Virus record (IMG/VR): IMGVR_UViG_3300047274_000273 | Span: 55,217-119,216 of that record | Origin: a virus | Lineage: Duplodnaviria > Heunggongvirae > Uroviricota > Caudoviricetes | Reading direction: 5' to 3' (one strand) | Length of the DNA stretch: 64,000 nucleotides | Shown here: positions 29,099-48,695 of the stretch, piece after piece | Position numbering within the stretch: the first letter of the stretch is position 1 | Layout of the letters: each line of letters opens with the position of its first letter | Position numbers and translations under genes: made by a program | The notes under the pieces: generated by a model | Told to the model about the DNA's origin: nothing | Databases searched by the model: none | What the model saw: the letters and a program-made list of their open reading frames with translations, nothing else

Positions 29099-29101
29099 TA
29101 G

Positions 29102-29542: not shown

Positions 29543-29543
29543 T

Positions 29544-29804: not shown

Positions 29805-29805
29805 T

Positions 29806-31377: not shown

Positions 31378-31613
31378 TTTCTAAAAAGATTGTATAGTTA
31401 TCTATATCACTTTTGGAAGGTAACCTATGGCCAAGATCTTTTTGACATTTTTTCTTTTAGTAGTAATCTTTTATTTTTCCATTAATGCCGTACGGACATT
31501 GAATAAAAAGGAAAAATGGGCATTGACCAAGACCGTAGGCTATGCTATACTATGCGCATCGCTGGCTGTTCTAGCGATGATTTCTATCGTAATTCTCTTT
31601 TAAGGACACAGAC

Positions 31614-32411
31614 ATGAAACGTATTTTCACTCTCTCTATTCTCGCCGCCGCCGTCCTGGCCACTGGCTGCACTCGTATCGAAACCGGTGAGGTCGGTGTT
31701 CGAGTTGGTTTCGACAAGCAGGTCAAGCCCGGCGAACTCTTGCCCGGCTCATTCAACCAAACTATCATCGGTGATGTGCTTACATTTCCGATCAAGGATG
31801 TTAATGTTGTTCTTGAGAACATGACTCCTGTGGCCAAAGACAACAGCACTATGAAAGACTTTGATGCTGTGGTAGTCTACAACATCAATCCACAGAGCGT
31901 AGCTGAACTCTACAGCACCAAGAACAAGGCATTCCACGCAGAGTTCAAAGGTGACACCTACGTGATGTATAACTATGTTGTACAGAATGCTCGTAACGCT
32001 ATCTACAAGGCAGCACGTAAGTATGAAGCCTTGGACATGGCAGACAATCGCGAGCCTATGGAAAAGTACATCCAGGAAGAAATCACTCGTAATCTTGCCG
32101 AAGAAAAACTAGACGGCACTATCATCATTAGCCAAGTTCTAATCCGTAATGTAGTGCCTGCTGATTCAGTTGTTGAATCCGCTAATGCTCTTGTTCGTGC
32201 CAAGAACGAATACAAGCAGAAGGAAGTCGAAGTGCAAACTGCCAAGAAAGAAGCAGAACGTATGGCCGCATTGGCTAACAATTCAGCAAGTTCTATCGCA
32301 TTCATGAACGCACAGGCCGCACTTAATATTTCCGAAGGTATTAAGAACGGTAAAGTCCAGACTATCGTTGTTCCTGCTAACTTTAATGCTTTGATGTTAC
32401 CTAAGCAGTAA
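31614..32411 (+). CDS. SPFH/Band-7 domain lipoprotein
   Basis: Lipobox LATGC; ETGEVGVRVGF...FDAVVVYNINP SPFH core; C-terminal coiled coil. Confidence 0.65.
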   Translation: MKRIFTLSILAAAVLATGCTRIETGEVGVRVGFDKQVKPGELLPGSFNQTIIGDVLTFPIKDVNVVLENMTPVAKDNSTMKDFDAVVVYNINPQSVAELYSTKNKAFHAEFKGDTYVMYNYVVQNARNAIYKAARKYEALDMADNREPMEKYIQEEITRNLAEEKLDGTIIISQVLIRNVVPADSVVESANALVRAKNEYKQKEVEVQTAKKEAERMAALANNSASSIAFMNAQAALNISEGIKNGKVQTIVVPANFNALMLPKQ

Positions 32412-32412
32412 T

Positions 32413-32604
32413 ATGGCTCTGAGAATGATCAAGAAACTTTTCAGACCTCATCCTAATAATAGATATCCCGTGACACGGGATCCCAAACGGAATCCTAGGT
32501 GCTATGAACTCACTGATAAAGAGCGTGAAGAAGCTATTCAACGAGTGGATCGAATCTTACGAGAACGAACTGCTGAACACGAACACGGATACTACGGAGC
32601 CTAA
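32413..32604 (+). CDS. small basic protein
   Basis: ORF only. Confidence 0.3.
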   Translation: MALRMIKKLFRPHPNNRYPVTRDPKRNPRCYELTDKEREEAIQRVDRILRERTAEHEHGYYGA

Positions 32605-32720
32605 ATGACCAGGATTAGGATAGCCCTCGCTCGCTGGATTTTGGGTCGCCATTGTCCCTGCTACAAGATGGGCTATCATAATCTCTGCGATTTTCGTAAT
32701 CATAAGATCGGAAACAAAAA

Positions 32721-33065
32721 ATGAGTTTTCTAAGTTTTTTAGGATTTGGTAAAATGGTCAAAGATGGTGCAGAAGTTTTAGAGTTTCCAAAACCCAAGGC
32801 AGTTCCTAAGATGCCCGAAGTTCCACCACCTCCACCAAAAGAAGAGCCTGCTAAAATCTTTTATCGACTAGGAATAACCGATAACAACCGTGTTGCTTTT
32901 AGTATGGGCTACAGTGAAATACTAATGAATAAAGCGGGTTGTCAGCAAATGATTGATCAGATCGCCTTCTTTCAAAGTCAGTTACATGACGAAGGCGGCC
33001 CCTCTGATGATCCCGATGGTGGTTTGCCATTACCGGAAGAAGTTGAACAAGCAAAGGCAGCATGA
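32721..33065 (+). CDS. hypothetical Pro-rich protein
   Basis: ORF only. Confidence 0.35.
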   Translation: MSFLSFLGFGKMVKDGAEVLEFPKPKAVPKMPEVPPPPPKEEPAKIFYRLGITDNNRVAFSMGYSEILMNKAGCQQMIDQIAFFQSQLHDEGGPSDDPDGGLPLPEEVEQAKAA

Positions 33066-33736
33066 TGGGATCTATACTCAGTGACATCTTCGAAAGGATC
33101 GGAGATCTTGAAACGAAACCCCTACATAAGAATCACGGCAAGGCCGTAGATGTTGTAGAGTTTCCTTGTGTACATCGAGATGACAGCGAACCCCTGAGTA
33201 TAATTTGGCCTGATCTTAAACAAGGTCCTTGGCTCGCTGGCGGCGCCTGCCTGCGTTGGTATCAAGGACAGCCTGTGGGAGAAAATGACATTGATATATT
33301 CTGCTCCAGTGCAGAACAGGCACAGAACATCATCGATGATATCAAGAGCTATGGTAGATATTCTATAAAGTATGAAAGCGAAAATGCTACGACGTTGAGT
33401 TACTACAGTAAAGATTCTAATAAGACTTGGACATTACAGATCATCAAGCGTAGATATTTTACCAGCCTAAAAGACATCATCGATAACTTTGATATCTCTG
33501 TCTGCCAAATCGGAACTGCGGGCAATGATTGGTTATTAGGAAAGAATACCGCTCGCGATATTCGTGAGAGAAATCTGCGTATGAACATGCCTTTGCAGCC
33601 TGATGCTGTGAAAAGATTAGCGAAATACTGGACTTATGGTTATCGTCCAGTAGACGGGCTGTTAGATGCTGTTAGGGTGAATCCCATAGGAAAGAAAATG
33701 TTCCAAAGTAACGAGGACTATGAAAATGCGTTCTGA
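33062..33736 (+). CDS. nucleotidyltransferase with CCA-adding/poly(A)-polymerase-type head motif
   Basis: WLAGGACLRWYQGQPVGENDIDIF matches the GGxxR...G...DxDh head motif of class II tRNA nucleotidyltransferases and PAP. Confidence 0.45.
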   Translation: MMGSILSDIFERIGDLETKPLHKNHGKAVDVVEFPCVHRDDSEPLSIIWPDLKQGPWLAGGACLRWYQGQPVGENDIDIFCSSAEQAQNIIDDIKSYGRYSIKYESENATTLSYYSKDSNKTWTLQIIKRRYFTSLKDIIDNFDISVCQIGTAGNDWLLGKNTARDIRERNLRMNMPLQPDAVKRLAKYWTYGYRPVDGLLDAVRVNPIGKKMFQSNEDYENAF

Positions 33737-34115
33737 ACAATCATGGAGCCTTCTAGATCCGAAACCAGTGATGCTGTATCTTTCCAATCTAGATGAATAC
33801 ATCGTATATTGGAACGGTATCGCCACTACACATCTAATGGCTTTAAATTTAGCCATGGAGTATTATGGTATCTTTCCTACCCCTGAAATGAAATCAGCTA
33901 TGGAGCAAAACTACAGCAAGATTTACTATGCGAATGGTTTCAATACAAGAGCATGGGATCTTAAAGTATCCAGTTCGCCAATTTATCCCTATGTGAAAAG
34001 GCTGTTGGCAGAACACTGTAAAAAAGTGATTGACGAATCGGGTCGAGATATTTCTGAAGTTTTAGGCTGGTTCGATTACAGTCGAGCAAGAAAAGAACAA
34101 TGCGCTGATAGCTAA
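33720..34115 (+). CDS. hypothetical protein (3' end overlaps the tRNA by 14 nt)
   Basis: ORF only. Confidence 0.35.
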   Translation: MKMRSEQSWSLLDPKPVMLYLSNLDEYIVYWNGIATTHLMALNLAMEYYGIFPTPEMKSAMEQNYSKIYYANGFNTRAWDLKVSSSPIYPYVKRLLAEHCKKVIDESGRDISEVLGWFDYSRARKEQCADS

Positions 34116-34177
34116 ATGGAACAGCAGGAGCCTCTAAAACTCCAGATGCGTGGGTTCGATTCCCACTCAGCGCACCA
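34102..34177 (+). tRNA. tRNA with anticodon CUA (candidate amber suppressor), CCA encoded
   Basis: 76 nt. 7-bp acceptor stem GCGCUGA/UCAGCGC; U8; A14, G18, G19, A21; anticodon loop cuCUAaa with U33 and A37; T-arm GTGGG-TTCGATT-CCCAC; discriminator A; 3' CCA. One mismatch each in the D and anticodon stems; 6-nt variable loop. Confidence 0.6.
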
Positions 34178-34298
34178 GAGCAGCGAGACTATCACAACCT
34201 CAGTATGAGTCGCTAAGGTAGGCGCCTAATCCTTAGGGCAAGCAACAGTACGAAATTGTGAGTGGCACCTCGGAACTAGACGGGGCATAGGATTTAAA

Positions 34299-34550
34299 AT
34301 GGCAGCATTAATGTTTAAAACTAAAGAAGAAGCGCAGGCCTGGATCCGTTCAATTATGGGTCCTCCTAAGCGTATTCTCCATGGCGAAGAACACGATCGG
34401 GTTTGGTTGATGTTGCAGATGACAGAACCTGTTAGAGAAACTAACAATCAGCATAGTTGGTGTGCTGAATACAACGTTGGCGGAATTATGTATGATGTAC
34501 ATTATTTCCCAAACGAAGAACCTTTTATTGAGCAGTATCTAAATGATTGA
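34299..34550 (+). CDS. hypothetical protein
   Basis: ORF only. Confidence 0.35.
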   Translation: MAALMFKTKEEAQAWIRSIMGPPKRILHGEEHDRVWLMLQMTEPVRETNNQHSWCAEYNVGGIMYDVHYFPNEEPFIEQYLND

Positions 34551-34848
34551 TTATCACGAAGCACTTAAAGAAATGCATCAGGGCAAAGTAGTCAAATATG
34601 TTGGCACTGTGAATGGCAATGTAATGACTAACAAAGGTGCTAGTTTCTGTATGTGTCGCGGGTGTATCTTTCTTTTTGATAGTGGTGTAATCAAATGGAA
34701 CAAATTAGGCTATATGGTCTATGACCCAGACTTTCGTTATGAGCCAACAGGCGAAACAGTTGACCCTAGGGCTTGGAAACCAGAAAAGAAAAGTAAAGAA
34801 ATCAAATCAAAGTTAGGATACAGTCGTATTGGATTAAGCAATGTATAA
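34543..34848 (+). CDS. hypothetical protein
   Basis: ORF only. Confidence 0.35.
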   Translation: MIDYHEALKEMHQGKVVKYVGTVNGNVMTNKGASFCMCRGCIFLFDSGVIKWNKLGYMVYDPDFRYEPTGETVDPRAWKPEKKSKEIKSKLGYSRIGLSNV

Positions 34849-35026
34849 CGAACATTTTAAAAATCAAATAGAGCAAGGTGCTAGAGAAATGTTTTTCTAC
34901 GCACTTGAAAATGCAGATCAATCTAGGGTAGAAATAAAAAGTCACAAAGGTACAATTGATACTTTTCCTGAACTAGAATACATCCGCCATTTAAGCGATG
35001 GCGTTCCTTTATTCAAGAATAAATAG
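34841..35026 (+). CDS. hypothetical protein
   Basis: ORF only. Confidence 0.3.
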   Translation: MYNEHFKNQIEQGAREMFFYALENADQSRVEIKSHKGTIDTFPELEYIRHLSDGVPLFKNK

Positions 35027-35104
35027 AATTTGTAGGGTGGTCCTACAAACCAACACTCTTTAAACACTAGGTACTTAGAGTGTGTACCGTAACAAGGAGA
35101 AATC

Positions 35105-35839
35105 ATGATGTATGAATCAAAGCTCGCCGCGGCAATCAAAGTAGACGGTAAAGTCCTAAGAGAATTCAAGGACACAGTACATATCCCATTTGGCAGTGAA
35201 TATACAATCCTACTTAAGAACCTTAATACGACCCGTGCTGTCGTTAATGTTTTTATCGATGGTAACGATATGGTCCCTGGTGGACTTGTACTGGATCCTG
35301 GCAGAGAAGTCGACCTCGAACGATCGGTCAAGAACGGCAATCTCACAGAAGGCAATCGATTCAAGTTTATCGAACGCACAGGGAGTGTGGAAAAGCACAG
35401 GGGAATCGGTATTGAGGACGGACTGGTAAGAATCGAGTTCCAGTTCGAACAACCACCACGTCCTATCCTTTGGAATACTTCTAATATCAACAGTATCTAT
35501 CCGCAGGGCGGAATCCTTCGCGGTGTGAACGATGTTCATTACGGTGTGACTTGTTCTACAGCCAGCTATGATGCTACTTCTGTGAACAGCAGCCACTCGT
35601 TGTTAAACGATGTTGGTATCACTGTTCCCGGTAGTCACAGCACACAGAAGTTTTCAACTGCCTATGTTGGCGTACTAGAAAGTGTCAAACACTCAATGGT
35701 GTTCAAACTTTTCGGTGGTACTATGCCAAAACCGATTACAGTTAAGCACAAACCAAAATGTGTGACCTGCGGCAAGCAGAACAAAGCTACCAGCAAGTTT
35801 TGCCAAGAGTGCGGTACTGCTCTTGAAATATTCGCATAA
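35105..35839 (+). CDS. hypothetical protein with C-terminal zinc-ribbon
   Basis: SD aaggag; C-terminal CVTCG...CQECG double Cys pair. Confidence 0.4.
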   Translation: MMYESKLAAAIKVDGKVLREFKDTVHIPFGSEYTILLKNLNTTRAVVNVFIDGNDMVPGGLVLDPGREVDLERSVKNGNLTEGNRFKFIERTGSVEKHRGIGIEDGLVRIEFQFEQPPRPILWNTSNINSIYPQGGILRGVNDVHYGVTCSTASYDATSVNSSHSLLNDVGITVPGSHSTQKFSTAYVGVLESVKHSMVFKLFGGTMPKPITVKHKPKCVTCGKQNKATSKFCQECGTALEIFA

Positions 35840-36030
35840 GTAGTATATAATGAAAAGCATACGACACGGCACAGCAGCAGCCAACTCAAAGTTGCGTGGT
35901 CGTAAGACCGCGATGCTAACCTGCCGTTGTTGTATGCTGATTAATTTCAAACACGAAGAACGTGTAAAAGAAGCCAAAACTGACATAAGGAGATATCAAA
36001 ATGGCCTAGATTGAATATGCTTGTAAGGAC

Positions 36031-36561
36031 GTGGTGTTCCATTTCAACAAAAAACACCTAGAGGACCAAACCATACCTATGTGGGTCCTAAAAACACATG
36101 GGGAATCATTTTACGTCAATCACGTGACCTGCGAGATACCTTGGACTACCAAGGAAACGCCAGACAACTCGCATACCAAAGGCAGTATCAAAGTCAAAGA
36201 TTGTCTATTGACAATTGACGAAGAAAACTCTGCTACTATCAGTAATCTTTCAGTATTTGATAAAATCCGCTTACGCAACCAAAAGTTGGGTATCACTAGG
36301 ATAATCTTCTCTTGGGGATCCAAGATGCATACAGCTCTAGCCGGAAACGAGTTCAAACACAGTCCTTTCAAGAATGTTGAAGGAGGCTGTGGAACTAGTT
36401 TCGTTATCTGCGATCTACTAAAGAAAGAAGAAGCTACATTAGCAGCGTTGAAATATCCAAACTGTTGGCGTGTTCTCAAACCAAATGAGGCCTACTATCA
36501 GCGATACGATCAGAAAGGCACGATTTGGGAAGATGAAGATCTTGACGAGGATGACGAATGA
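36031..36561 (+). CDS. hypothetical protein
   Basis: ORF only. Confidence 0.35.
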   Translation: MVFHFNKKHLEDQTIPMWVLKTHGESFYVNHVTCEIPWTTKETPDNSHTKGSIKVKDCLLTIDEENSATISNLSVFDKIRLRNQKLGITRIIFSWGSKMHTALAGNEFKHSPFKNVEGGCGTSFVICDLLKKEEATLAALKYPNCWRVLKPNEAYYQRYDQKGTIWEDEDLDEDDE

Positions 36562-36587
36562 GTGTTAAATAACTGTATTGCTGTATG

Positions 36588-36899
36588 AAGCAAAGAGAAA
36601 AGTGTTCTGGACGCGGGTTCGATTCCCGCCCGGTCCACCAGAAAGAATTCTTCACCCTGTATAGAGACAGACAAGTGCTATAGACTATACTAAAGAGTTC
36701 TTTCTAATGGGCCGGACCTGGTTTCGACAGGGCAAAGAGTAACAGAGTGGACAGCAGGGTAGGCGATGACCCTAAATCAAGCAAAACTATAACTGCAAAC
36801 GCAGCTAATGACGAGGTTTACGCTCTAGCAGCCTAAACTTCCGGGGCAGGTATGCCTTGTAACCAAAAATACCAAAGCGGCTCTTGTGGCCGCTTTTTC
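36588..36899 (+). ncRNA. ssrA: two-piece (circularly permuted) tmRNA: acceptor piece upstream, coding piece with tag ORF downstream, intrinsic terminator
   Basis: 36607-36640 GGACGCGGGTTCGATTCCCGCCCGGTCCACCA is nearly identical to the E. coli tmRNA 3' end (T-arm, 3' acceptor, CCA). 36709 GGGCCGGACCTGGTTTCGACAGGG is the tmRNA 5' end-like, forming G3:U70 with the upstream acceptor strand. Tag reading frame 36795-36836 reads GCAAACGCAGCUAAUGACGAGGUUUACGCUCUAGCAGCCUAA (..ANDEVYALAA stop). Terminator at 36876-36899. Confidence 0.8.
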
Positions 36900-36927
36900 T
36901 TGACTTTTACTGATAGTTTGTTATATA
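36900..36927 (+). promoter_or_regulatory. sigma70-like promoter TTGACT-16-TATATA
   Basis: Sits directly after the tmRNA terminator in a 200-nt AT-rich region upstream of ahpC. Confidence 0.45.
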
Positions 36928-37020
36928 CTTGTCCTAGATAAAGGTTATTTTTGTACGACCGTTATTAATTTTTTATATTATCCTCATTGAAAAATACAAT
37001 AAAAAATCTATTAAAATTAG

Positions 37021-37049
37021 TTGATTAATAGGATAATTAAATGTATAGT
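37021..37049 (+). promoter_or_regulatory. sigma70-like promoter TTGATT-17-TATAGT upstream of ahpC
   Basis: Near-consensus hexamers with a 17-nt spacer, about 58 nt upstream of the ahpC ATG. Confidence 0.55.
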
Positions 37050-37106
37050 AATTACATAGGACATGGAGTTCTAAAGTTTTTCAAACACACACAAAGGAGA
37101 TTGTAA

Positions 37107-37658
37107 ATGAAAACAGTTGGTAATAAATTAGAAAAATTTGCAGTAACAGGAGTTAACCCAGGTAAGGATGATTTCTTTACTATCGATGAAAATAGTTTTT
37201 CAGGCAAGTGGAAGGTAATCGTTTACTATCCTAAGGACTTTACATTTGTTTGTCCCACAGAAATCGTTGCCTATGACAAATTGTTTCAAGACTTTGCTGA
37301 TCGTGACGCAGTATTGCTCACTGGTAGCACAGACAACGAATTCTGCAAACTAGCATGGCAGGCCGCACACGAAGATCTCAAGAAAATCAAGCACATCCAA
37401 TTTGCCGATACACAGCGTTGGAATGATGAGACTATGGAAGATTTAAGCCTAATTAATCAGTTAGGTGTGTTCTATGCTCCAGCAGGTGCCGCACTCCGTG
37501 CGACATTCATCGTCGATCCGGATAATGTTATCCAACACGTCACTGTCAACAACTTGAATGTTGGTCGCTCACCAGAAGAAACACTTCGTGTTCTTGATGC
37601 ATTACAGACTGGCGAACTTTGTGCTTGTAACCGCACAGTAGGCGGAGAAACACTATAA
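37107..37658 (+). CDS. ahpC: peroxiredoxin AhpC (typical 2-Cys, mycobacterial type)
   Basis: FTFVCPTEI peroxidatic Cys motif; C-terminal ELCACN; close alignment to actinobacterial-type AhpC. Confidence 0.85.
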   Translation: MKTVGNKLEKFAVTGVNPGKDDFFTIDENSFSGKWKVIVYYPKDFTFVCPTEIVAYDKLFQDFADRDAVLLTGSTDNEFCKLAWQAAHEDLKKIKHIQFADTQRWNDETMEDLSLINQLGVFYAPAGAALRATFIVDPDNVIQHVTVNNLNVGRSPEETLRVLDALQTGELCACNRTVGGETL

Positions 37659-38164
37659 TGGCATTCATTGACGCAATTAAAACTGCGTTGCCAGAATACG
37701 CAAAGGACACCAAGTTAAACTTGGACGCTGTCCTTTTGCGTTCAACATTAGATGCTGATGTGGCTATGGGATGTGCTGTGGCCGCCTTGGCCGCAACTGG
37801 TAACGGTAAGGTACTTGCTGTTATGCTGGCCGATGCACCTGTTCACGCAGAGTCGGCGATGACTGCTGCCAGCATCATGGCACAGAACAACGTTTGGTAC
37901 CCATATGTTGAAATGGCAGACGATGAAAGCCTAAAAGGATTGCCAGCACAGTTACGCATGAACGCTATTGCAAGTCATGGCGGAACTACAAAGGCAAACT
38001 TTGAAGCGTTTAGTCTTGCCGCAAGCATTGTGGGCAAATGTCATTTCTGTGTTAAGGCACACTACGACACATTGAAGAAGGAAGGCTACACAGTAGAACA
38101 ACTTCGTGACATTGGACGTATCGCCGCAGTAATGAACTCAGTGGCAAAGGTATTGAACTCTTAA
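37658..38164 (+). CDS. ahpD: alkylhydroperoxidase AhpD (CMD family)
   Basis: ALPEYAKDTKLNL N-terminus; GKCHFCVKAH (CxxCxxxH) catalytic motif; overall alignment to M. tuberculosis AhpD. TAATG overlap with ahpC. Confidence 0.75.
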   Translation: MAFIDAIKTALPEYAKDTKLNLDAVLLRSTLDADVAMGCAVAALAATGNGKVLAVMLADAPVHAESAMTAASIMAQNNVWYPYVEMADDESLKGLPAQLRMNAIASHGGTTKANFEAFSLAASIVGKCHFCVKAHYDTLKKEGYTVEQLRDIGRIAAVMNSVAKVLNS

Positions 38165-38167
38165 GAA

Positions 38168-38190
38168 AAACCCACCATTGGTGGGTTTTT
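38168..38190 (+). terminator. rho-independent terminator
   Basis: aaacccacc-att-ggtgggttt followed by tt. Confidence 0.8.
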
Positions 38191-38216
38191 AAATTATCTA
38201 TTAAAGAGAGAATAAA

Positions 38217-38630
38217 ATGTTAGAGTGTTTGATCTTAGGTGATAGTCTTGCAGTGGGCATAGGACAGATCCGCAAAGAATGTACGACCTATGCCGTCAGT
38301 GGTATCAGTAGCTATAACTATGTTAATAGACATATCTTATACACTGGTTCTAATAACAAAGAAGCCAAGACAGTGATAATCAGCTTAGGATCAAACGATC
38401 TCAAGAACATCAATACCTACGAAGAATTAGACACTTTGAGACAACTAGTCAAAGCAGATCGAGTTTATTGGATCTTGCCTGCTATCAAAGAAAATAAACG
38501 GGAAGCAGTCCAAAAAATTTCTCAAAAATACAATGATGTTGTCATTGACGCAAGACAGCATTCTATGAGTCCTGATGGGGTACATCCTACCTACAAAGGC
38601 TACAAAGAAATTTCTGCCAAAACCAAATAA
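38217..38630 (+). CDS. SGNH/GDSL-family hydrolase
   Basis: ILGDSLAVG (GDS block), GSND, DGVHP (DxxH block). Confidence 0.55.
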   Translation: MLECLILGDSLAVGIGQIRKECTTYAVSGISSYNYVNRHILYTGSNNKEAKTVIISLGSNDLKNINTYEELDTLRQLVKADRVYWILPAIKENKREAVQKISQKYNDVVIDARQHSMSPDGVHPTYKGYKEISAKTK

Positions 38631-38650
38631 ACTATAAAGTGCAGTAATAT

Positions 38651-38854
38651 ATGCAAGAATCATCACTACGCAGTCTGGCCAAAACACTTAGTTGGCGGGT
38701 CACAGGTAGTGCTTCTACATTCATTATCGTTTATCTTGTCACGGGTAGTGCAGGTGTAAGTTCGGGAGTGGCTGTTATACAGATGATCGTCAATACTTTC
38801 TTGTATTGGTTTCACGAACGAGTATGGAATCGTATCAAGTGGGGCAAAGACTAA
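38651..38854 (+). CDS. small membrane protein (DUF2061-like)
   Basis: Two TM spans. Confidence 0.35.
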   Translation: MQESSLRSLAKTLSWRVTGSASTFIIVYLVTGSAGVSSGVAVIQMIVNTFLYWFHERVWNRIKWGKD

Positions 38855-39711
38855 TTTTTGAGAAATAGTTTTTTTTCTACGATTTCTTTAAGAGGTATTC
38901 CGTGTAGTTTCGATTTTGTGTAACAGTCAGCATAGGGATCATAATCGATCCATGTGCCTAGACCTAAGACAATATGGATTCTATCTTCTGGAAATTCGCA
39001 GCGCCTGTTAACAGTGACCTTATGCGGAATCCTAGTATTCCAGATATAAGCCTTCCCTAATTCAAGATGTTTTCTTATAGATAATTCGTTTCCGTATTCA
39101 TCGCGACCATCGATTTCTATTATATATTCTCGAGATGTCTGCAATGGAATATTGATCCTCAGTAAGTGTGTAGGCGGCTCGTCTACGTGAGGATCACTGT
39201 CGTTACGAGATTTTCCGAACATATTTAAAAAAGCCACTCGACTGCGAAATATAGGCATACTCAATTTTGAAAATAAACTACCAAACGATCGTTCTATTAT
39301 GGGATCGATTTTTCTAAATGCAAATGTATCATAATAGGTATTTCTAATCTTATCATGCTCGCCCATGCCCGCAGACCTTCCATAGTTCTGGAGCAAATTA
39401 CCAGAACCCCAGGTCTGATGAAATTTAGAAGAGCCAGTATCTTTATAGTCAGGATTATAGGTGAGAGAAAATCCCGAATATTTTCTGCTCTTACCAAATT
39501 TAGTAGTCCATGGCTGTAGTCCTATTTGATTCTTAACAGCCATAGTTGACTCTAGTAGCTCGGTATGGCTAGGCAAGCCTAGCTCTCTCAAATCGAACTC
39601 ATAAAATAAAAAGTTCTGCAATGAATCCGAAATCATCTGCTCGGAGTAAAAACCGGCACTGGTTAGGTGTGCGATAATTTCTTTAGAATCATCGAGATCG
39701 GATATGTTCAT
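38851..39711 (-). CDS. hypothetical protein, possible 2OG-Fe(II) oxygenase / cupin-type HxD...H fold
   Basis: PHVDEPP...IPHKV, a possible facial-triad arrangement. Weak call. Confidence 0.3.
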   Translation of the reverse strand: MNISDLDDSKEIIAHLTSAGFYSEQMISDSLQNFLFYEFDLRELGLPSHTELLESTMAVKNQIGLQPWTTKFGKSRKYSGFSLTYNPDYKDTGSSKFHQTWGSGNLLQNYGRSAGMGEHDKIRNTYYDTFAFRKIDPIIERSFGSLFSKLSMPIFRSRVAFLNMFGKSRNDSDPHVDEPPTHLLRINIPLQTSREYIIEIDGRDEYGNELSIRKHLELGKAYIWNTRIPHKVTVNRRCEFPEDRIHIVLGLGTWIDYDPYADCYTKSKLHGIPLKEIVEKKLFLKN

Positions 39712-39843
39712 TAGTGTATTTATGGGCCGTATTCATTAGTCATCTTTAATGATTTAACGTATGTTTTTTCCGGTGATTTTACCGTATTATAATGATACAT
39801 ACTGATGCAATAGAAGTATGTTTTTATAAAAAGGAGACACATT

Positions 39844-39915
39844 ATGTGGACCAAACCTGAAGCAACCGAAATGCGTTTTGGCTTTGAAGTAACAATGTAC
39901 GTAGCTAATCGCTAA
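39844..39915 (+). CDS. pqqA: PqqA-like peptide (coenzyme PQQ precursor peptide, 23 aa)
   Basis: [23 protein letters not shown] versus Klebsiella PqqA [23 protein letters not shown]: same length, and the conserved MW.KP, G.EVT.Y..NR residues are kept, including the Glu and Tyr that become PQQ. Strong SD aaggag; terminator directly downstream. Confidence 0.6.
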
Positions 39916-39924
39916 TCCAAAAGA

Positions 39925-39945
39925 GCCCACTTCGGTGGGCTTTTT
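39925..39945 (+). terminator. rho-independent terminator
   Basis: gcccac-ttcg-gtgggc followed by ttttt. Confidence 0.8.
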
Positions 39946-40005
39946 CTTGACTTTTTTTCCTACCGGTGTTATAATAATATCAACAGTAACGACTGGAGAA
40001 CAATT

Positions 40006-40401
40006 TTGAGTATGCATTTGGAAGGCCCGTGGCTCAGCACCACAGGCAAAAAGAAAGGCAAACGCAAATTTCGAAACGCTGATGAAGCGAGAAAGGCTAG
40101 ACAGTTGAAAGAAGAATGGGAAGATCTTCTCAAACGTCACGGTATTGAGCAAGAACAGCGCCGTAAGAATCGAGCTCTAGCTGTCCCTACTTATACGCCA
40201 ATTAAGGCCGAACCTTATAGGCGAGATACAGGTCCAAGGATTCCTAGTTTGAATCCCACCGATATGGCTCCTTGCCTTAAGACTCCAGACAAGGTCTATA
40301 CAGGAACTGCTATCAAAGGTATTGGTACTATGCATAAATCTAACGCTGTACCTATCTTTTCGGACGAAGAAGCGATAGATATCGCCAAAATGCGTCGATA
40401 A
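40006..40401 (+). CDS. hypothetical basic protein
   Basis: ORF only; Lys/Arg-rich N-terminus. Confidence 0.35.
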   Translation: MSMHLEGPWLSTTGKKKGKRKFRNADEARKARQLKEEWEDLLKRHGIEQEQRRKNRALAVPTYTPIKAEPYRRDTGPRIPSLNPTDMAPCLKTPDKVYTGTAIKGIGTMHKSNAVPIFSDEEAIDIAKMRR

Positions 40402-40667
40402 TCACCGGTTTACAACTAGAATATTTGATGTTATGCTATATATAACTACGTTTCGCAAAGAAACTGAGATAGTAGAACCGAAGTATGTCAAAAGCTGAAA
40501 AGGTTCCGCGAGTCTTGGCCTATGAGAAACCCGTGAGATTCGGGCGGTCAAGGCTCCAAAGGCACATGAGTTATGAGATCATGCGTCCAATGGAGACAAC
40601 TACACGAACCCAGGGTTCTTTCAAGAGCCTCGTGAAGTTTACTCCCTTAATGTAATGTCGTGAAGTA

Positions 40668-41252
40668 TTGCGACACCAAGTGAAAGGAGGACTTATGGAA
40701 AAGTCAATTCGTTTTATCTGTTGCCTTCTCGGCTTTTTGGCCGTGGTAACTGTTATCCAATCTTTGGTTAACAAAAAGTTTGAAAATCTCAAACAAGTCA
40801 ATGGCTACTATAGCCAAGATGTAATTTCTATCAAAACCCGTGAAACTCAACTAGACTGTCTGGCCATGAATATCTATCGTGAAGCCGGATATGAAAATTT
40901 TGAGGGCAAGGTCGCAGTCGCACAAGTGACTATGAATCGTGTCAAGGACGGTAGGTTTGGAGAAGATGTCTGTGGAGTGATCTACAAGAAAAATGTCGTG
41001 ATGGACAAGGTCGTTTGCCAATTCTCATGGGCTTGCGATCATGCAGCCAGAACTAGACCTGTGAATCCCACAGCCTACAAAGAAAGTTACGAAGTAGCTA
41101 AGAAAGTTCTTTTGGAAGGTTTCCAATTGAGTGTTCTCAAAGATGCATTATACTATCATGCAAACTATGTGAACCCTCGTTGGCCCTTAGAAAAGATTGG
41201 ATCAATCGGTAATCACATTTTCTACAGAGGAAAGAAAGGCAACAATGTTTAA
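40668..41252 (+). CDS. SleB-type cell-wall hydrolase (endolysin candidate) with N-terminal signal-anchor
   Basis: LDCLAMNIYREAGYE...GKVAVAQVTMNRV...VCQFSWACD: the Hydrolase_2/SleB signature. SD aaaggagg. Confidence 0.65.
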   Translation: MRHQVKGGLMEKSIRFICCLLGFLAVVTVIQSLVNKKFENLKQVNGYYSQDVISIKTRETQLDCLAMNIYREAGYENFEGKVAVAQVTMNRVKDGRFGEDVCGVIYKKNVVMDKVVCQFSWACDHAARTRPVNPTAYKESYEVAKKVLLEGFQLSVLKDALYYHANYVNPRWPLEKIGSIGNHIFYRGKKGNNV

Positions 41253-41574
41253 TAAATTTAACATCCTACCACATTTTGAATCCATGGAAGAATTTAAATC
41301 TTGGGCAGTGGCCAAGGTTAGTTCGATTTCTTCTGAAACATTCGGATGGCTAGCTGTTATCGTTCTTCACGCAGCCACTATTCCTAGTATGCTAGCAGTA
41401 ATGAGCGGTCTAACCGATCGACTACCTGCGGTAGACCTAGTCTTATTGGTTTGGGGAGGACTCGGACTGTTGTTCGTCAAGGCCGCGGTGCAGAAAGACA
41501 TGCTGAACGTTGTCACGATTGGTTTGGGATTCATCCTACAGGCTGTATTAATGGCTCTGATATTTTTCAAGTAA
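41245..41574 (+). CDS. three-TM small membrane protein (holin candidate)
   Basis: ATGTTTAATAA overlap with the lysin stop; three hydrophobic helices. Confidence 0.45.
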   Translation: MFNKFNILPHFESMEEFKSWAVAKVSSISSETFGWLAVIVLHAATIPSMLAVMSGLTDRLPAVDLVLLVWGGLGLLFVKAAVQKDMLNVVTIGLGFILQAVLMALIFFK

Positions 41575-41653
41575 TTTGGTAAACGCCATAGTTGACTTTT
41601 GTCGGCTATGGTGTTACTATATGTAAGTCGTAACTACTCATAGAGAGGCACAC

Positions 41654-42253
41654 ATGAAAAAGGCATTTGTTGTTGTACCGTTGGTAATTGCTCTTACCGC
41701 CTGCGGTTCGATGACCACACTTCAAACTGAAAATCTAGAAAAGAAAACAGTCCCCACTTGGTATCTTGATCATGCAGATAAAGGCAGTGAATCAAAATCA
41801 TGGTACAAGCCCTGGGACCGTGATGGCATGTATTATGCTGTCGCAGAAGATGTTAGCCCTTCGATGGAAATGGCGCTGAAAAAGGCCACACTCAAAGCCA
41901 AGGCCAAGATCGCTGATAGGGTCAACGGTGAGATGAACAACCGTACTACTATCAAATATGACGAATCTGGTCCTCCGTCCAATCCGATCGGAACAGGTGG
42001 CGCACAGGATGTGATCGTTAATCTTATCGCCGAAAGCGTACTTCGTACCTACGGTGTTGAAAAGAAAATGATCATCTATAATCCAGAACTTCGAAATTAT
42101 AGAGCATTCGTGATGTTGAAGATCAGCCAGCAAGATGTGCAGGCATTGGCTGCAACTTTCGATCAAAACAAACAGGTCAAGCTTCAAGGCAGAGTCGCTG
42201 GCAAGACTCTAGATGAAACAGCCAAAGAAGTTCTTGAGCAATCACGTCGATGA
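41654..42253 (+). CDS. lipoprotein, hypothetical
   Basis: Lipobox LTAC. Confidence 0.45.
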   Translation: MKKAFVVVPLVIALTACGSMTTLQTENLEKKTVPTWYLDHADKGSESKSWYKPWDRDGMYYAVAEDVSPSMEMALKKATLKAKAKIADRVNGEMNNRTTIKYDESGPPSNPIGTGGAQDVIVNLIAESVLRTYGVEKKMIIYNPELRNYRAFVMLKISQQDVQALAATFDQNKQVKLQGRVAGKTLDETAKEVLEQSRR

Positions 42254-42609
42254 AAACACTATATCCAAAAACAGCACGGATCTTAACCTGCTCCGTGTTG
42301 ATTTTGGCCTTGTCGGCCTGTGCATCTAAGCCCGCGATCAAGGCCAAGTCAGAACAGTACTGCGATCTCAAATCAACGACTGTTGTGGTGAAAAATCAAC
42401 ACGGTGTTTTGGAAGAGCAAACAGTTGAGATTTTAAAGTGCAACGACAACGAAATTGACAGACTATTCTTGGCTCAATCCGGAATGGCTGCTAACTGCGG
42501 TGAATTCACTTATTGGATGAAGATTGGAGACAGGGATGTTAGACGTAAGGGCGTCAGCTGCCAAAAGTTGGATGGTAATTGGGAAATTGTTAATACTGGT
42601 CGCAACTAG
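42250..42609 (+). CDS. lipoprotein, hypothetical
   Basis: Lipobox LSAC. Confidence 0.4.
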   Translation: MKTLYPKTARILTCSVLILALSACASKPAIKAKSEQYCDLKSTTVVVKNQHGVLEEQTVEILKCNDNEIDRLFLAQSGMAANCGEFTYWMKIGDRDVRRKGVSCQKLDGNWEIVNTGRN

Positions 42610-42967
42610 TCCTGCACTGGCCAACGATATTAATAATCCTAGATTTTTTAATTATAGAGGTGAGTCTTTCGTTAACGATCTAGTCATTGGCGGGTTTGGT
42701 TGGTTTCGAACACTTAATGACGATCAGAAAGATGCTTACACACAGGCCGTGACTCATGCGGTAATGTACGCAGAAAATGGGCAAGCAGTTGAATGGTTTA
42801 AGGGCACAGCCAGCGGTATGGCAGTGCCTGTTATGACCTGGCCCACGGGTTCTGGCTACTGTAGAAGAATACATGCACAGGCCATTGCCTACGGTGTAGA
42901 AAAAACAATGAGTAAGACTGCCTGCTATTCAAATGCTAGCAGTAATTGGAGATGGATGGATAACTAA
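42572..42967 (+). CDS. secreted hypothetical protein
   Basis: Signal peptide MVIGKLLILVATSPALA; the start is uncertain and could be 42536. Confidence 0.35.
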   Translation: MVIGKLLILVATSPALANDINNPRFFNYRGESFVNDLVIGGFGWFRTLNDDQKDAYTQAVTHAVMYAENGQAVEWFKGTASGMAVPVMTWPTGSGYCRRIHAQAIAYGVEKTMSKTACYSNASSNWRWMDN

Positions 42968-42977
42968 ATAATTTTTC

Positions 42978-44438
42978 ATGAAAATCAATATTAGCGATCG
43001 TATCATTGCCTATTTGGCCCTAGTCAGCGGTTTATCAATATCCGCAGTGGCTATCTATTACTCTGTTGCAGGCCTAGTGTCTATCTTTGCCGCGGCAGTG
43101 ATTCCTATCACGGTTATGGGTGTGGTCTTAGAAGTAGGCAAGCTATCGGCCACTGTTTGGTTGAAGCAAAATTGGTCTGTGGCACCTAGGTTCCTTAAGG
43201 CCTACCTAATGATCGCTATCACGGTGCTGATGTTGATTACCAGCATGGGTATATTTGGTTATCTTTCTAAGGCGCATTTAGATCAAGCAGTACCTACAGG
43301 AGATGTAGCTGCCAAGGTCGCTCTCCTAGACGAAAAGATAAAAACAGAAAGAGACAATATCGAAACAGCCCGTGCCGCTATAAAACAAATGGATGCACAG
43401 GTCGAAGCGAGATTAAGTCGCAGTGATGACGAAAAAGGTGCAGAACGTGCTGTGCAAATACGTCGTCAACAACAGACAGAGCGCGGCCGCTTACAAAAAG
43501 AAATTGGCGATGCTCAGGCACGTATCGCAAAGCTAAATGAAGAACGAGCTCCAATCGCCAGCGAGCTTCGTAAAGTAGAAGCCGAAGTTGGACCTATCAA
43601 ATATATCGCTGCATTGATGTACGGTGATAATCCAGATCAAAATCTTTTAGAAGCTGCGGTAAGATGGGTCATCATTATCATAGTTTTTGTATTTGATCCG
43701 TTAGCAGTGATTCTGTTATTGGCCAGTCAGTATAGTTTCTCTTGGTTCCGCAAGCAGGAAGAAGAAAACCAATTACCTCCAGAGAACGTCGAAGAGGCAC
43801 CAATCGAAGAAGCAGTAGTCGAAGAAGAAAAAGAGGACGACTTTAAATTCTTGGCCGAAGATGAGGATCTTTATCCAGAAGGAAAACCTTGGGAAGAAAA
43901 AGAAAAAGAAAACGAATACAAGATCACTCCCGAAACTCACTCTTATCTTTTCAAACCATGGGTAAGCCGTGTGCCGGGAGTTGAACCTGTAGGCCCATTG
44001 GTTTATAAACCAGAAACTGATACAGTGATCACTCCTGAATCTGCGGTTGAAGAAGAACTAGACACAGACGACGAGGATGAATTAAATCATCCTGACGATT
44101 CGGCAGAAATGAAAGCAGCCAAATCTTCATGGAAACATGATCATCCTAATGACTCGTTGAAGCGTCATCGAAAGCTATTCGAAAAAGGCATCATCTCAAA
44201 ATTACCTTGGGAAAGTTATCTAAAACCTCAGGCAGATTTCAGCGACGACGAAGCAGCCGAGGAAGCAGCCAAGTGGGCCGCTGAACAACTCGAAGCCAAA
44301 AAAAAAGGCAGTGACTTGGATAGAGAGAGTGGGCAAGGAACAGATAACCAAAACCAAAGATTGATAGAAAACTACGAACAGAATGCTGAACAAAGTGAAT
44401 CCACTCTTTGGAAAAAGATAAAAGATGCTAAAAGATGA
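42978..44438 (+). CDS. membrane protein with coiled-coil and acidic C-terminal region
   Basis: Three N-terminal TM helices, a long coiled coil, a further TM helix and an E/D-rich tail. Confidence 0.4.
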   Translation: MKINISDRIIAYLALVSGLSISAVAIYYSVAGLVSIFAAAVIPITVMGVVLEVGKLSATVWLKQNWSVAPRFLKAYLMIAITVLMLITSMGIFGYLSKAHLDQAVPTGDVAAKVALLDEKIKTERDNIETARAAIKQMDAQVEARLSRSDDEKGAERAVQIRRQQQTERGRLQKEIGDAQARIAKLNEERAPIASELRKVEAEVGPIKYIAALMYGDNPDQNLLEAAVRWVIIIIVFVFDPLAVILLLASQYSFSWFRKQEEENQLPPENVEEAPIEEAVVEEEKEDDFKFLAEDEDLYPEGKPWEEKEKENEYKITPETHSYLFKPWVSRVPGVEPVGPLVYKPETDTVITPESAVEEELDTDDEDELNHPDDSAEMKAAKSSWKHDHPNDSLKRHRKLFEKGIISKLPWESYLKPQADFSDDEAAEEAAKWAAEQLEAKKKGSDLDRESGQGTDNQNQRLIENYEQNAEQSESTLWKKIKDAKR

Positions 44439-44812
44439 CTGATAAGATCATTATAGCAACACCGCCCGACGACTGCTATCTGGATGCTGTAAGAATCCTA
44501 ACAGTAAATCTCACACACGATCAGTCTAATACGATCTCCCAAGCACTGATGAATCTAGACACAGATGTCAACGTCGTCTGCTATGTCTGGAAAACAGGTG
44601 ATCCCATACAATGGTTACTAGATAAAAAGGTCAAAGCCGACTGCACGTTTTTTAATGCAGACACTGTGATATCGGAATTAGTCACAGGTTATATAGCAGC
44701 CCAATCTAGATCTTATTATTTTGGTAATCTCAGAGATTTACAAGAAGCTAATAGAAATGTTATATATACTAAAGATGATGTTTTATCAATTCTAGGAAAG
44801 ATCACAATTTAA
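44435..44812 (+). CDS. hypothetical protein
   Basis: ORF only. Confidence 0.35.
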   Translation: MTDKIIIATPPDDCYLDAVRILTVNLTHDQSNTISQALMNLDTDVNVVCYVWKTGDPIQWLLDKKVKADCTFFNADTVISELVTGYIAAQSRSYYFGNLRDLQEANRNVIYTKDDVLSILGKITI

Positions 44813-44813
44813 T

Positions 44814-45053
44814 ATGAAAAAACTCTACGAAGACAGAAAAGGTACAGGTGTTACTGTAAAAGAACACGAGAATATCAATCAAGCTCTACGCCGTTTTAAG
44901 AAGAAAGTAGAAGAGTCTGGCACACTAGAAGCTCTTAGAAAAAAAGAGTTTTATGAAAAGCCTACGACTGTAAAAAAGAGAAAAGCGGGTGCTGCTAAGG
45001 CTCGTTGGCAAAAGAAACTCAGAGATCAACAACTACCTCCCAAACTATTCTAA
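44814..45053 (+). CDS. rpsU: ribosomal protein bS21
   Basis: ALRRFKKKVEESGTLEALRKKEFYEKPTTVKKRK aligns with bacterial S21 (ALRRFKR...EFYEKPT..RKR). Confidence 0.85.
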   Translation: MKKLYEDRKGTGVTVKEHENINQALRRFKKKVEESGTLEALRKKEFYEKPTTVKKRKAGAAKARWQKKLRDQQLPPKLF

Positions 45054-45065
45054 GAAAGGTATTCT

Positions 45066-46100
45066 ATGCGTATCGAAGACGAAGTCAAGCTAGACTTCCG
45101 TGATGTGCTGATCCGTCCTAAGCGTTCTACGCTGTCAAGTCGCAAAGAAGTAGATCTCAATCGTACTTATAAGTTTAAGCATAGCGGTGCAGAATGGACC
45201 GGTGTTCCAATCATGGCCTCTAACATGGATGGAGTTGGTACACTTTCCATGGCATCAACTTTATACGATCATCGTATGTTTACCTGTTTGGTCAAATCAT
45301 ATGAGGAAGACGATCTCTTCGAAATCACAGGAAAGATTGGTGGAAATTATTTTGCGGTCAGTACCGGCACCAGCGAAAATGATTTTAGAAGATTAAGTCG
45401 GATCATCAATTCTTACCCCGAAATCCATTTTATCTGCATCGATGTGGCCAACGGGTATTCGGAAAGATTCGGAGATTATGTAGCGGATGTTAGAGATGCA
45501 TTTCCGCATTGTACAATTATCGCTGGTAACGTTGTTACCGCAGACATGACACAGGAGTTAATTTTACGTGGCGCGGACATTATTAAAGTGGGTATTGGCC
45601 CTGGTAGCGTTTGTACTACTCGTATCCAAACTGGTGTGGGCTACCCACAGCTTAGTGCTATTATTGAGTGTGCCGATGCCGCTCATGGTCTTGGCGCTCA
45701 TATTATTGCTGATGGTGGATGTGTTTGCCCTGGTGATGTTGCTAAGGCTTTCGGCGCTGGTGCGGACTTTGTGATGCTGGGCGGTATGCTGGCCGGACAT
45801 GATGAAGGTGGTGGTACCATTGTTTCTGAAGACGGATACAATCCTAGGGTAATCTTCTATGGAATGAGTTCAGATACCGCTATGAACAAACATCATGGTG
45901 GTGTCGCGGAATATCGATCATCTGAAGGTAGGACAGTAGAAGTAAAATACAAGGGTTCAGTTAATGGCACAGTGTTAGATCTCCTGGGAGGTTTGAGATC
46001 TGCATGTACCTATGTCGGAGCTCCGACTCTAAAGCAGCTATCTAAGTGTACTACATTTATTAGAGTGAATAGACAAATCAACGATGTGTTTTTAAAATAA
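45066..46100 (+). CDS. guaC: GMP reductase
   Basis: [23 protein letters not shown]...[11 protein letters not shown]...GGMLAG...[12 protein letters not shown]. Near co-linear with E. coli GuaC. Confidence 0.9.
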
Positions 46101-46723
46101 TGCTTGACTTTTATAACAAAAAACAATATAATAATACTATGAACACTGACGTAATGATTGATTTAGAAACACTAGATGTACGACCCTCAGCAACAGTATT
46201 GACTATCGGCGCTGTAAAATTTGATCCTTTTGGTTCTGATATTGAAGAACCCTCAATGGAAAAATTTTATGTTAGAGTCGATGTTGATAGCTGTGATCGA
46301 CTAGGCTGCACAGTTAGCCAATCTACTCTAGATTGGTGGGCCGGCCAAGATAAGGCTGCACAGGACGAAGCATTTGATCCTAATGGTAGGATTGACATTG
46401 TTGATGCAATGAATCAACTTTACAAATTCTGCTGGGGAGCCAAGCGTGTATGGAGTCATGGCGCAGGTTTTGATATTATTATCTGCGAAACATTATTCCA
46501 TAAAATTGGAAAAGCAGTTCCTTGGAGTTTTTGGGAAGTACGAGATACACGTACTTTGTTTGATTTAGGTATCGACTCTCATCGTCCGCCTGTACTAAAG
46601 CATCATGCCCTAGAAGATGCTTGGAACCAGGCTGTGGGAGTTCAAAATGTTTTTAAAATTTTAAGGACATCGAGCTCTAGTCTTAACGGAAAATTGATTA
46701 TGCCCTTGGCTAATCAGAGATAA
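46100..46723 (+). CDS. DEDD-family 3'-5' exonuclease (DnaQ-like)
   Basis: IDLETLD (Exo I) and HGAGFD (Exo III-like). The start could be 46139. Confidence 0.5.
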   Translation: MLDFYNKKQYNNTMNTDVMIDLETLDVRPSATVLTIGAVKFDPFGSDIEEPSMEKFYVRVDVDSCDRLGCTVSQSTLDWWAGQDKAAQDEAFDPNGRIDIVDAMNQLYKFCWGAKRVWSHGAGFDIIICETLFHKIGKAVPWSFWEVRDTRTLFDLGIDSHRPPVLKHHALEDAWNQAVGVQNVFKILRTSSSSLNGKLIMPLANQR

Positions 46724-46755
46724 ATAAAATTTATAAACTGTACCAATATGTGGGC

Positions 46756-46801
46756 AGTTTATAGGGCATAGTGCCCAAATAGATCTTACTTTACAAGGAG
46801 A
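46756..46801 (+). promoter_or_regulatory. conserved heat-shock-type promoter/leader cassette upstream of dnaK
   Basis: AGTTTA-N11-GCCCAAAT-N4-CTTACTTTACAAGGAGA; the same cassette precedes hsp20. Confidence 0.45.
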
Positions 46802-46805
46802 TATT

Positions 46806-48695
46806 ATGTCTAAGATCATCGGTATTGACCTCGGCACCACCAACTCATGCGTGGCTATCGTCGAGAACGGAACTTCCAAAGTTATTGAAAATTCAGAAGG
46901 TGCAAGAACTACACCTAGTATCGTTGCCTATGCTAATGATGAAATCCTCGTAGGCGCATCAGCCAAGCGTCAAGCAGTAACTAATCCTAAAAATACAATC
47001 TATGCGGCCAAGCGACTAATTGGTCGTAAGTTCAAAGAACAGGCTGTACAAAAAGATATCGATCTCATGCCATATGAAATCATGGAAGCCAAGAATGGCG
47101 ATGCATGGGTTAGAGCACAGGGCAAAGAACTAGCCCCTCCACAGATTTCCGCAGAAGTCCTTCGCAAGATGAAGAAGACCGCAGAAGATTATCTTGGTAC
47201 TACAGTTACTCAAGCAGTCATTACTGTTCCTGCGTACTTTAATGATCAACAACGTCAGGCGACCAAAGATGCAGGACAGATCGCAGGATTAGAAGTACTG
47301 CGTATCATCAACGAGCCAACCGCGGCCGCTCTAGCTTACGGTGTTGATAAGGAATCAAAAGGCGATCGCAAGATCGCAGTCTATGACCTAGGTGGTGGTA
47401 CATTTGACGTTTCGATTATTGAAATCGCGAATGTTGATGGTGATAAGCAAATCGAAGTATTGTCTACAAACGGTGACACTTTCCTGGGCGGTGAAGACTT
47501 TGACCAACGTATCATGGACTACTTGGTCGACGAATTCCGTAAAGAGCAGGGAGTGGATCTAACCAAGGACATGTTAGCTTTACAACGACTCAAAGATGCT
47601 GCTGAAAAAGCTAAGATTGAATTATCTAGCAGCACACAAACAGAAGTTAATCTTCCATATATCACAGCAGATGCCAACGGTCCTAAGCACTTAGTAGTCA
47701 AGTTGTCCAAAGCTAAACTAGAAAGCCTAGTTGACGATCTAATCCAACGCTCATTAGAGCCTTGCCGCATCGCTATGAAAGATGCAGGTGTTACTGCCGC
47801 TGACATCGACGAAGTTATTCTTGTTGGCGGTCAGACACGTATGCCTAAGGTACAAGAAGAAGTTGAGAAGTTATTTGGTAAAGCACCACGTAAAGATGTG
47901 AATCCAGACGAAGCAGTGGCTGCGGGCGCTGCTATCCAAGGTGCTGTTCTTGGCGGTGACCGCAATGATGTTCTATTACTAGATGTTACACCATTGAGCC
48001 TAGGTATTGAAACACTGGGCGGTGTAATGGCTAAGATCATCCAGAAGAATACAACTATTCCTACTAAGGGACAACAAACATTTTCTACAGCAGAAGATAA
48101 TCAACCTGCGGTAACTATCAAGGTTTTCCAGGGTGAACGTGAACTCTGTCAGCACAATAAGCTCTTGGGCGAATTTAATCTAGAAGGCATCGCTCCGGCA
48201 CGTCGCGGCCAGCCTCAGATCGAGGTTGCTTTTGATATCGATGCCAATGGTATCATGAATATCAGTGCCAAGGACAAGAGCACAGGTAAAGAAAATAAGA
48301 TCACTATCAAGAGCGACAGCGGTCTGAGCAAAGAACAGATCGAGCAGATGATTCGCGATGCTGAAGCTAATGCAGAAGCAGATAAGAAATCCAGAGAGCT
48401 TATTGAAGCTAAAAATCAAGCAGAGTCTACAGTTCACGAAGTGAAGCGTGATATGGAAGAACTCAAGGATGATCTCAGTGATGCCGAAAAGGCTGAAATT
48501 GAATCTGCGATCGCAGCCGTTCAAGAAGCAGCCAAGACAGACGACACAGACAAGATCAAATCCGAGCTTGAAAAAGTTTATCCGGCAATGAAAACATTGT
48601 TGGAAAAAAAGCAGGCCAAAGAGCAATCACAGGCTCAACCTGCTGGTACAGATGATAATGTAGTCGATGCTACCTTTACGGAGAAAAAAGACTAA
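46806..48695 (+). CDS. dnaK: chaperone DnaK (Hsp70)
   Basis: [21 protein letters not shown], full-length 629 aa with C-terminal lid. Confidence 0.95.

Follow-up and report, generated by a model that had tools for sequence, protein, structure and literature searches.

The cofactor PQQ is completed by peptidases together with PqqB and PqqC, and one PqqA precursor peptide is consumed for every cofactor molecule made. The leader of PqqA is bound by the chaperone PqqD (PMC10906245), which delivers the peptide to the radical-SAM enzyme PqqE for the linking of a glutamate to a tyrosine (PMC10906245; references in PMC7678222). In canonical operons, such as those of Klebsiella, Pseudomonas, Acinetobacter and Pseudohongiella, pqqA directly precedes pqqB–E. 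The Methylophilaceae carry 3–12 pqqA copies and a single pqqBCDEFG (Beck et al. 2014, PMC4109929), and thus the pathway is present at family level and orphan pqqA genes are normal there. Among viruses, PqqA has been reported in T4-like phages of Lake Baikal that are predicted to infect Methylophilaceae, where it was proposed to act as an auxiliary metabolic gene for methanol oxidation by supplying precursor (VP_266; Coutinho et al. 2020, Microbiome 8:163, PMC7678222). The stretch of DNA analyzed here (the window, 64,000 nucleotides) resembles VP_266 in placing a PqqA gene in a T4-like phage with a probable Methylophilaceae host. The Baikal contigs have about 35% GC and encode methanol dehydrogenase, whereas the window has about 42% GC and no quinoprotein among 30 ORFs, a comparison of composition and gene content rather than of aligned sequences.

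The gene in the window is a 23-codon ORF with an ATG start and a TAA stop, read from the sequence and present in one copy only (Table 1). Its product matches both curated PqqA models, with 41.4 bits for PF08042 (gathering cutoff 21.1, E = 1.3e-10, model positions 1–19 of 19) and 42.5 bits for the NCBIfam equivalog TIGR02107 (cutoff 20, E = 4.1e-11, model positions 1–21 of 21). Both scores are about twice their cutoffs, and the match is far above chance. The length of the peptide fits the class of very short ribosomal peptides (about 20–40 aa), and the E-x-x-x-Y motif formed by Glu15 and Tyr19 lies within GFEVTMY. That this ORF is a genuine pqqA is, in our judgment, virtually certain.

When compared to the canonical copies, the window peptide is of the same family and length and has the same E-x-x-x-Y core, and its C-terminal 15 residues are exactly those of Pseudohongiella PqqA. 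The difference lies in the neighborhood, as the usual position directly upstream of pqqBCDE is not found in the window. Pfam searches of 30 window ORFs returned no pqqB, pqqC, pqqD or pqqE, and neither a radical-SAM enzyme nor a PQQ-dependent dehydrogenase or quinoprotein, while six-frame tblastn of the window with authentic PqqB–E gave at most 22 bits. The missing neighbors do not exclude membership in the PqqA family because stand-alone paralogues are the norm in Methylophilaceae (PMC4109929; MAG loci described below). The leader differs by one residue from the Methylophilaceae chromosomal copies. The phage peptide is predicted to be recognized by PqqD and converted to PQQ by PqqE/D, peptidases, PqqB and PqqC.

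Table 1. Features of the pqqA locus (positions are those of the window)
Feature	Position	Strand	Description
pqqA	39844..39915	+	23-aa PQQ precursor peptide; cross-link residues Glu15 and Tyr19; PF08042 and TIGR02107 matches
Shine–Dalgarno (SD) AGGAG	39832..39836	+	7 nt 5' of ATG; read directly
Candidate -10 hexamer TATAAT of pqqA promoter	39788..39793	+	in divergent intergenic region 39712–39843; conservation in contig L100
Intrinsic terminator	39920..39945	+	11-bp stem, UUCG loop, U-run (UUUUU); GAGCCCAC-UUCG-GUGGGCUUUUU
Sigma-70-type promoter of next gene (40006–40401)	39947..39975	+	TTGACT-17-TATAAT, with TG; 11/12 consensus matches

Because the upstream gene (38851–39711) lies on the minus strand, pqqA needs a promoter of its own. 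The candidate element for it, by inference, is the TATAAT hexamer, which is accompanied by GATACATAC; a consensus scan found no recognizable -35, and in a search for a recurrent promoter class, neither GGTGATT...TATAAT nor TATAATGATACATAC was repeated in the window beyond chance. A 61-kb IMG/VR contig (L100) is related to the window at several places and, with the genes next to pqqA rearranged, retains the cassette of -10 region, SD, ORF, terminator and downstream promoter at about 75% identity. There, the hexamer reads AATAAT, again with GATACATAC, the SD region AAAAGGAGA is kept, the 22-nt terminator core AGCCCACTTCGGTGGGCTTTTT is identical, and the changes within the ORF are mostly synonymous or conservative. 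The terminator of the window folds at -16.6 kcal/mol (z = -3.8; 0/200 shuffles fold as well), ranks first among the terminator-like sites of a 19-kb scan (28000–47000), and has no second occurrence in the window. The near-consensus promoter that follows it, whose -35 is identical in L100 and whose -10 is TATAGT there (one mismatch), divides pqqA and the next gene into separate transcription units. Within its divergent intergenic region, pqqA forms a monocistronic unit complete in itself, with its own promoter only partly visible. The preliminary description had read this locus as an orphan pqqA of 23 codons with a strong SD and its own terminator, and with no pqqBCDE in the window. All of this is borne out by the searches above, apart from the spacing of the terminator, in which the G+C-rich stem begins 7 nt past the stop codon (4 nt counting the A–U extension) and not 10 nt, a trivial correction.

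The divergent minus-strand ORF encodes 286 aa, and GC reaches its minimum for the window here (0.385). Neither Pfam nor PHROG gave a match, and the ORF does not occur in the other pqqA loci among the matches listed, including L100; it may be a recent insertion. For the same two reasons, it was rejected as a functional partner of pqqA.

The window represents a large T4-like myophage of the radiation comprising Melnitz, pelagimyophages and cyanomyophages. Nearly all of its ORFs lie on the plus strand. They include a virion structural protein (phrog_1645, E = 8.5e-108) for which the nearest homologues are those of T4-like cyanomyophages, an exonuclease, an endolysin, ribonucleotide reductase (RNR) subunits and a CsgG homologue, and the window also encodes two tRNAs and a two-piece tmRNA. 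On both sides, pqqA is flanked by genes for structure, lysis and replication. These flanking genes, together with the occurrence of the same gene in complete genomes of isolated lytic phages, place pqqA inside a bona fide phage genome, as the preliminary description had assumed. Megablast of the pqqA locus against INPHARED gave no match, the window phage being absent from that collection, and a search for records encoding the 131-aa neighbor protein found none.

The host is most likely a Methylophilaceae methylotroph (Betaproteobacteria in the older sense), in line with the methylotroph guessed in the preliminary description, because the type of tmRNA and the nearest cellular pqqA copies point to this group and the cultured carrier phages all belong to Methylophilales hosts. 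The tmRNA is permuted (36528–36898, plus strand) and betaproteobacterial, with 134 bits for RF01850, 138 bits for RF04321 and the tag peptide ANAANDEVYALAA. The related methylophage Melnitz has an alphaproteobacterial-like tmRNA; that of the window phage appears host-matched instead. For the cellular copies, we scanned bacterial genomes, one for each species, for an exact match to the last 15 residues of the phage peptide and recovered two groups, Pseudohongiella-like gammaproteobacteria and one Methylophilaceae MAG. The MAG, with a GC of 0.42–0.43 (0.42 in the window), contains four stand-alone pqqA copies, including a tandem pair, spread over three contigs. Residue 6 is the only one at which their peptides depart from that of the phage, and the DNA identity of 82–88% runs on for 3–26 nt ahead of the ATG, varying between copies. 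Some of these copies have their own terminators, as does the window copy, but they sit in ordinary chromosome with housekeeping flanks (polA, yihA, accC, prmA), whereas the window copy is in a phage genome. A Pseudohongiella-like host was considered on account of the shared C-terminal 15 residues, and was rejected on its GC (0.48–0.56 versus 0.42), its leader MWIKPAY, its canonical pqqA-then-pqqBCDE operon and the betaproteobacterial tmRNA of the phage.

To place the window gene among other viral copies, we searched 50,697 phage records with the peptide by tblastn. Twelve records matched, of which 10 were accepted as phage or viral: nine cultured Methylophilales phage genomes, namely Melnitz (four records), Venkman, MEP301, MEP401, MEP402 and P19250A, and one spring-water viral genome. 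Every cultured phage found with pqqA infects Methylophilales, and the orphan gene occurs in four morphologically different groups of these phages. Their peptides of 23–24 aa are 77–87% identical to that of the window with an identical 11-residue core, and all copies are orphans with an SD, like the window copy. The cultured phages differ in belonging to other lineages with genomes of 35–141 kb and in a tail that is mostly VMNK rather than VANR. The two remaining matches, both labeled "Acinetobacter phage MD-2021a", were excluded as phage evidence, the contig examined being bacterial chromosome. This 144-kb contig (CAKLQF020000010.1, our L007) carries entB, fur, ppk and pqqABCDE, and is mislabeled in the phage collection.

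In GenBank, phage pqqA mostly goes without annotation, with none in Venkman, MEP301, MEP401/402 or P19250A. A hypothetical CDS is called on the wrong strand over pqqA in Melnitz MZ577097 (5995–6069, MelnitzEXVC044M_152) and likewise in MW202481 (L004; 2119–2190, UOF77531.1). The Melnitz paper (PMC9004378) makes no mention of pqqA, nor does the paper on MEP401/402. Not one of the GenBank methylophage genomes examined has the gene annotated correctly. A simple pattern detects it easily.

In IMG/VR, two degenerate DNA-pattern scans, one anchored on the core (FGFEVTMY) and the other on the leader, gave at least 120 matches each and, when pooled, at least 158 distinct contigs with pqqA. All matches listed sit in PqqA-type ORFs, 150 of them exactly 23 codons long. 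No PqqB–E homologue was found in the first 120 of these viral pqqA loci (1.02 Mb; 66 loci with at least 1.5 kb on both sides). Among the matches listed, the flanking DNA sorts into about 20 clusters unrelated to one another once pqqA is masked, pqqA is antisense to both adjoining long ORFs in 53 loci, and most contigs have 35–37% GC, with the window at the high end. At least 28 viral loci (L138, L009, L045 and L151 among them) have a lysozyme/endolysin-like homologue of window 40668–41252 no more than a few kb away from pqqA. The Pseudomonas/Acinetobacter type of PqqA gave 0 matches in IMG/VR viral contigs, and the Methylobacterium type gave only one, again an orphan. This copy (core ...MKWSAPIVQEVCVGMEVTSYESAEIDTFN) lies at 2673–2804 of an 18-kb contig with 62% GC (L176, IMGVR_UViG_3300049988_000349), which could be a prophage or a host fragment.

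The window pqqA is a further example of an already reported viral gene, not a discovery. The novelty that the preliminary description had implied for a phage-borne pqqA gives way to the Baikal report (PMC7678222), the 10 GenBank phage records and the IMG/VR contigs. In the literature searched, we found no account of the scale seen here, which takes in essentially all lineages of cultured Methylophilales phages that were matched and, in IMG/VR, about 20 contexts among at least 158 contigs. Nor did we find the strongly purifying selection, the autonomous architecture of SD and terminator, or the systematic mis-annotation of viral pqqA.

The viral copies also allow the constraint on the peptide to be examined. 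Among the matches listed, 139 distinct 72-nt sequences encode 51 peptides, and the mean positional entropy of these sequences is 0.25, 0.18 and 0.85 at codon positions 1, 2 and 3, respectively. For codons 14–23 (core and tail), which are free of search-pattern constraint in the leader-anchored set, pN/pS (Nei–Gojobori) is 0.076 among the matches listed; for the leader and tail codons of the core-anchored set, it is 0.244, again among the matches listed. Viral pqqA is under strongly purifying selection (pN/pS 0.08–0.24). The G-x-E-x-x-x-Y motif, the 23-codon length and the stop position are kept in 120/120 leader-anchored copies listed, and no frameshifted or truncated copy was seen in these loci. 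An SD-like motif precedes the gene in all 157 evaluable viral loci listed, compared to 87/790 random positions (11%), and a terminator-like hairpin follows it in 66/155, compared to 19/790 (2.4%). As a close homologue of a host metabolic gene that is under purifying selection in phages, pqqA is a probable auxiliary metabolic gene, the SD, terminator and candidate -10 being the signals seen for its predicted expression during infection.

These patterns bear on two readings in which the peptide would be of no use to the phage. The first is that pqqA is a neutral passenger, acquired by recent capture of host DNA or produced by a chimeric assembly. The identity of 82–88% to the host copies, including the nucleotides upstream of the ATG, would fit such a capture, but the viral copies have diverged widely at synonymous sites with the peptide kept, and the gene recurs in at least 158 viral contigs and about 20 contexts as well as in independently isolated, completely sequenced phages. 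With the cassette kept between the window and L100 at about 75% identity, its terminator identical, and 0 broken copies among the 120 leader-anchored loci listed, this reading is close to refuted. The second is that the locus is mainly a small regulatory RNA in which the ORF is incidental, as a short monocistronic transcript with a strong terminator and a conserved 5' UTR might suggest. We consider this exceedingly improbable, since the variation among the 139 sequences clearly follows a period of three bases in the plus frame, an SD is present in all evaluable viral loci listed, and Rfam gave no match at the locus.

The reading that we favor, with a probability of roughly 0.7, is that pqqA is a functional monocistronic auxiliary metabolic gene that supplies precursor to the host PQQ enzymes during infection. 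We infer that the gene is expressed during infection, that its product is processed by host enzymes and that the phage benefits. In this scheme, the phage would make the 23-aa precursor, host PqqD/PqqE would join Glu15 to Tyr19 by a cross-link, and PQQ, the cofactor of periplasmic methanol dehydrogenases, would be finished by host peptidases together with PqqB and PqqC. The phage would thereby encode the consumable part only, leaving the catalytic enzymes to the host. Because one peptide is destroyed per PQQ while the enzymes are catalytic, a shortage is expected first in the peptide or its short mRNA, and would arise once host transcription declines. The phage copy would then keep methanol oxidation going and provide energy for phage production, extending the Methylophilaceae habit of keeping many orphan pqqA copies.

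The preliminary description had put forward this supply of precursor, which remains the best-supported reading, alongside the alternative of a decoy. As a decoy or inhibitor, the phage peptide would occupy host PqqD/PqqE without PQQ being made and so shut down the cofactor pathway. Its host-like leader is kept and could bind PqqD, and no downstream PQQ enzymes were found in the window or in the first 120 viral loci. A decoy needs the leader only, however, and yet Glu and Tyr are invariant in 120/120 copies listed that were collected by the leader alone, and core and tail are more constrained than the leader (pN/pS 0.076 versus 0.244, among the matches listed). Moreover, with one residue separating it from the host copies, the phage peptide would simply act as a substrate, and shutting off energy metabolism offers no obvious gain to a lytic phage. 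We therefore regard a decoy as very unlikely.

Two observations from the literature qualify the precursor-supply model. In Acetobacter pasteurianus, overexpression of pqqAB raised PQQ by only 29%, compared to eightfold with pqqABCDE (PMC7936290), which indicates that, without infection, PQQ is not in general limited mainly by the supply of precursor. The benefit of a phage pqqA may thus be confined to the infected state after host shut-off. In addition, the medium in which the hosts of OM43 phages were grown contained 1 nM PQQ (PMC9004378), a point against the model in that those hosts may not depend on PQQ made de novo. The pqqA promoter, for which no convincing -35 was found, also counts against it.

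The PQQ derived from the phage peptide might also serve something other than methanol dehydrogenase, such as redox or oxidative-stress protection or other quinoproteins. The AhpC/AhpD-like pair at 37107–38164 suggests a local cluster of redox-related auxiliary genes in the window, but AhpC is found together with pqqA at only 2 other loci among the matches listed. The viral gene is nearly confined to the Methylophilaceae-type peptide, which ties it to methylotrophs that are obligate or specialist and in which methanol dehydrogenases dominate among the PQQ enzymes (PMC4109929). On balance, such a use is unlikely, and supply of precursor for methanol oxidation is the reading that we carry forward.

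A comparable division of labor would be that of cyanophage psbA, which encodes the photosystem II D1 protein: the phage provides the fastest-turnover part of a host energy system and the host supplies the rest. The protein and pathway are unrelated to those of pqqA, and the likeness is at most a functional analogy. By extension, pqqA might be the signature auxiliary gene of methylotroph phages, psbA-like and repeatedly acquired by unrelated phage lineages, with the peptide being the first component to fail after shut-off and PQQ limiting the natural yield; we offer this fuller picture tentatively, at somewhat less than even odds. If phages do encode only the consumable part of this pathway, pqqA would be a very clean case of that strategy. 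In methylotrophs that are abundant in freshwater and coastal habitats (LD28, OM43, Methylotenera), carbon from methanol enters through PQQ-dependent methanol dehydrogenases, and a phage gene that sustains PQQ supply would tie C1 turnover directly to viral infection. As a marker independent of phage lineage, pqqA could also help to predict which uncultured viruses have Methylophilaceae hosts. Cultured phage–host pairs are available for functional tests.

Several other genes of the window phage deserve mention. The AhpC/TSA peroxiredoxin is directly followed by an AhpD-like protein of the carboxymuconolactone decarboxylase family, both on the plus strand, forming a phage-borne peroxide-detoxification pair 1.7–2.7 kb upstream of pqqA. 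A tRNA with a CUA anticodon (amber suppressor) lies at 34102–34177 on the plus strand (ARAGORN label Pyl; Rfam tRNA 59 bits). A full-length DnaK (Hsp70) homologue is encoded at 46806–48695 (plus strand); it is about 65% identical to DnaK of bacterial-looking contigs, with matches also in huge phages (Lak, LR75xxxx). Finally, positions 52938–60788 of the plus strand hold a run of envelope and signaling genes, which includes a FecR-like protein, an F5/8 type C domain protein, a CHASE2-sensor adenylate/guanylate cyclase, and a CsgG curli pore fused to an SH3 domain that is 47–48% identical to CsgG of Melnitz and of Pelagibacter phage HTVC008M.
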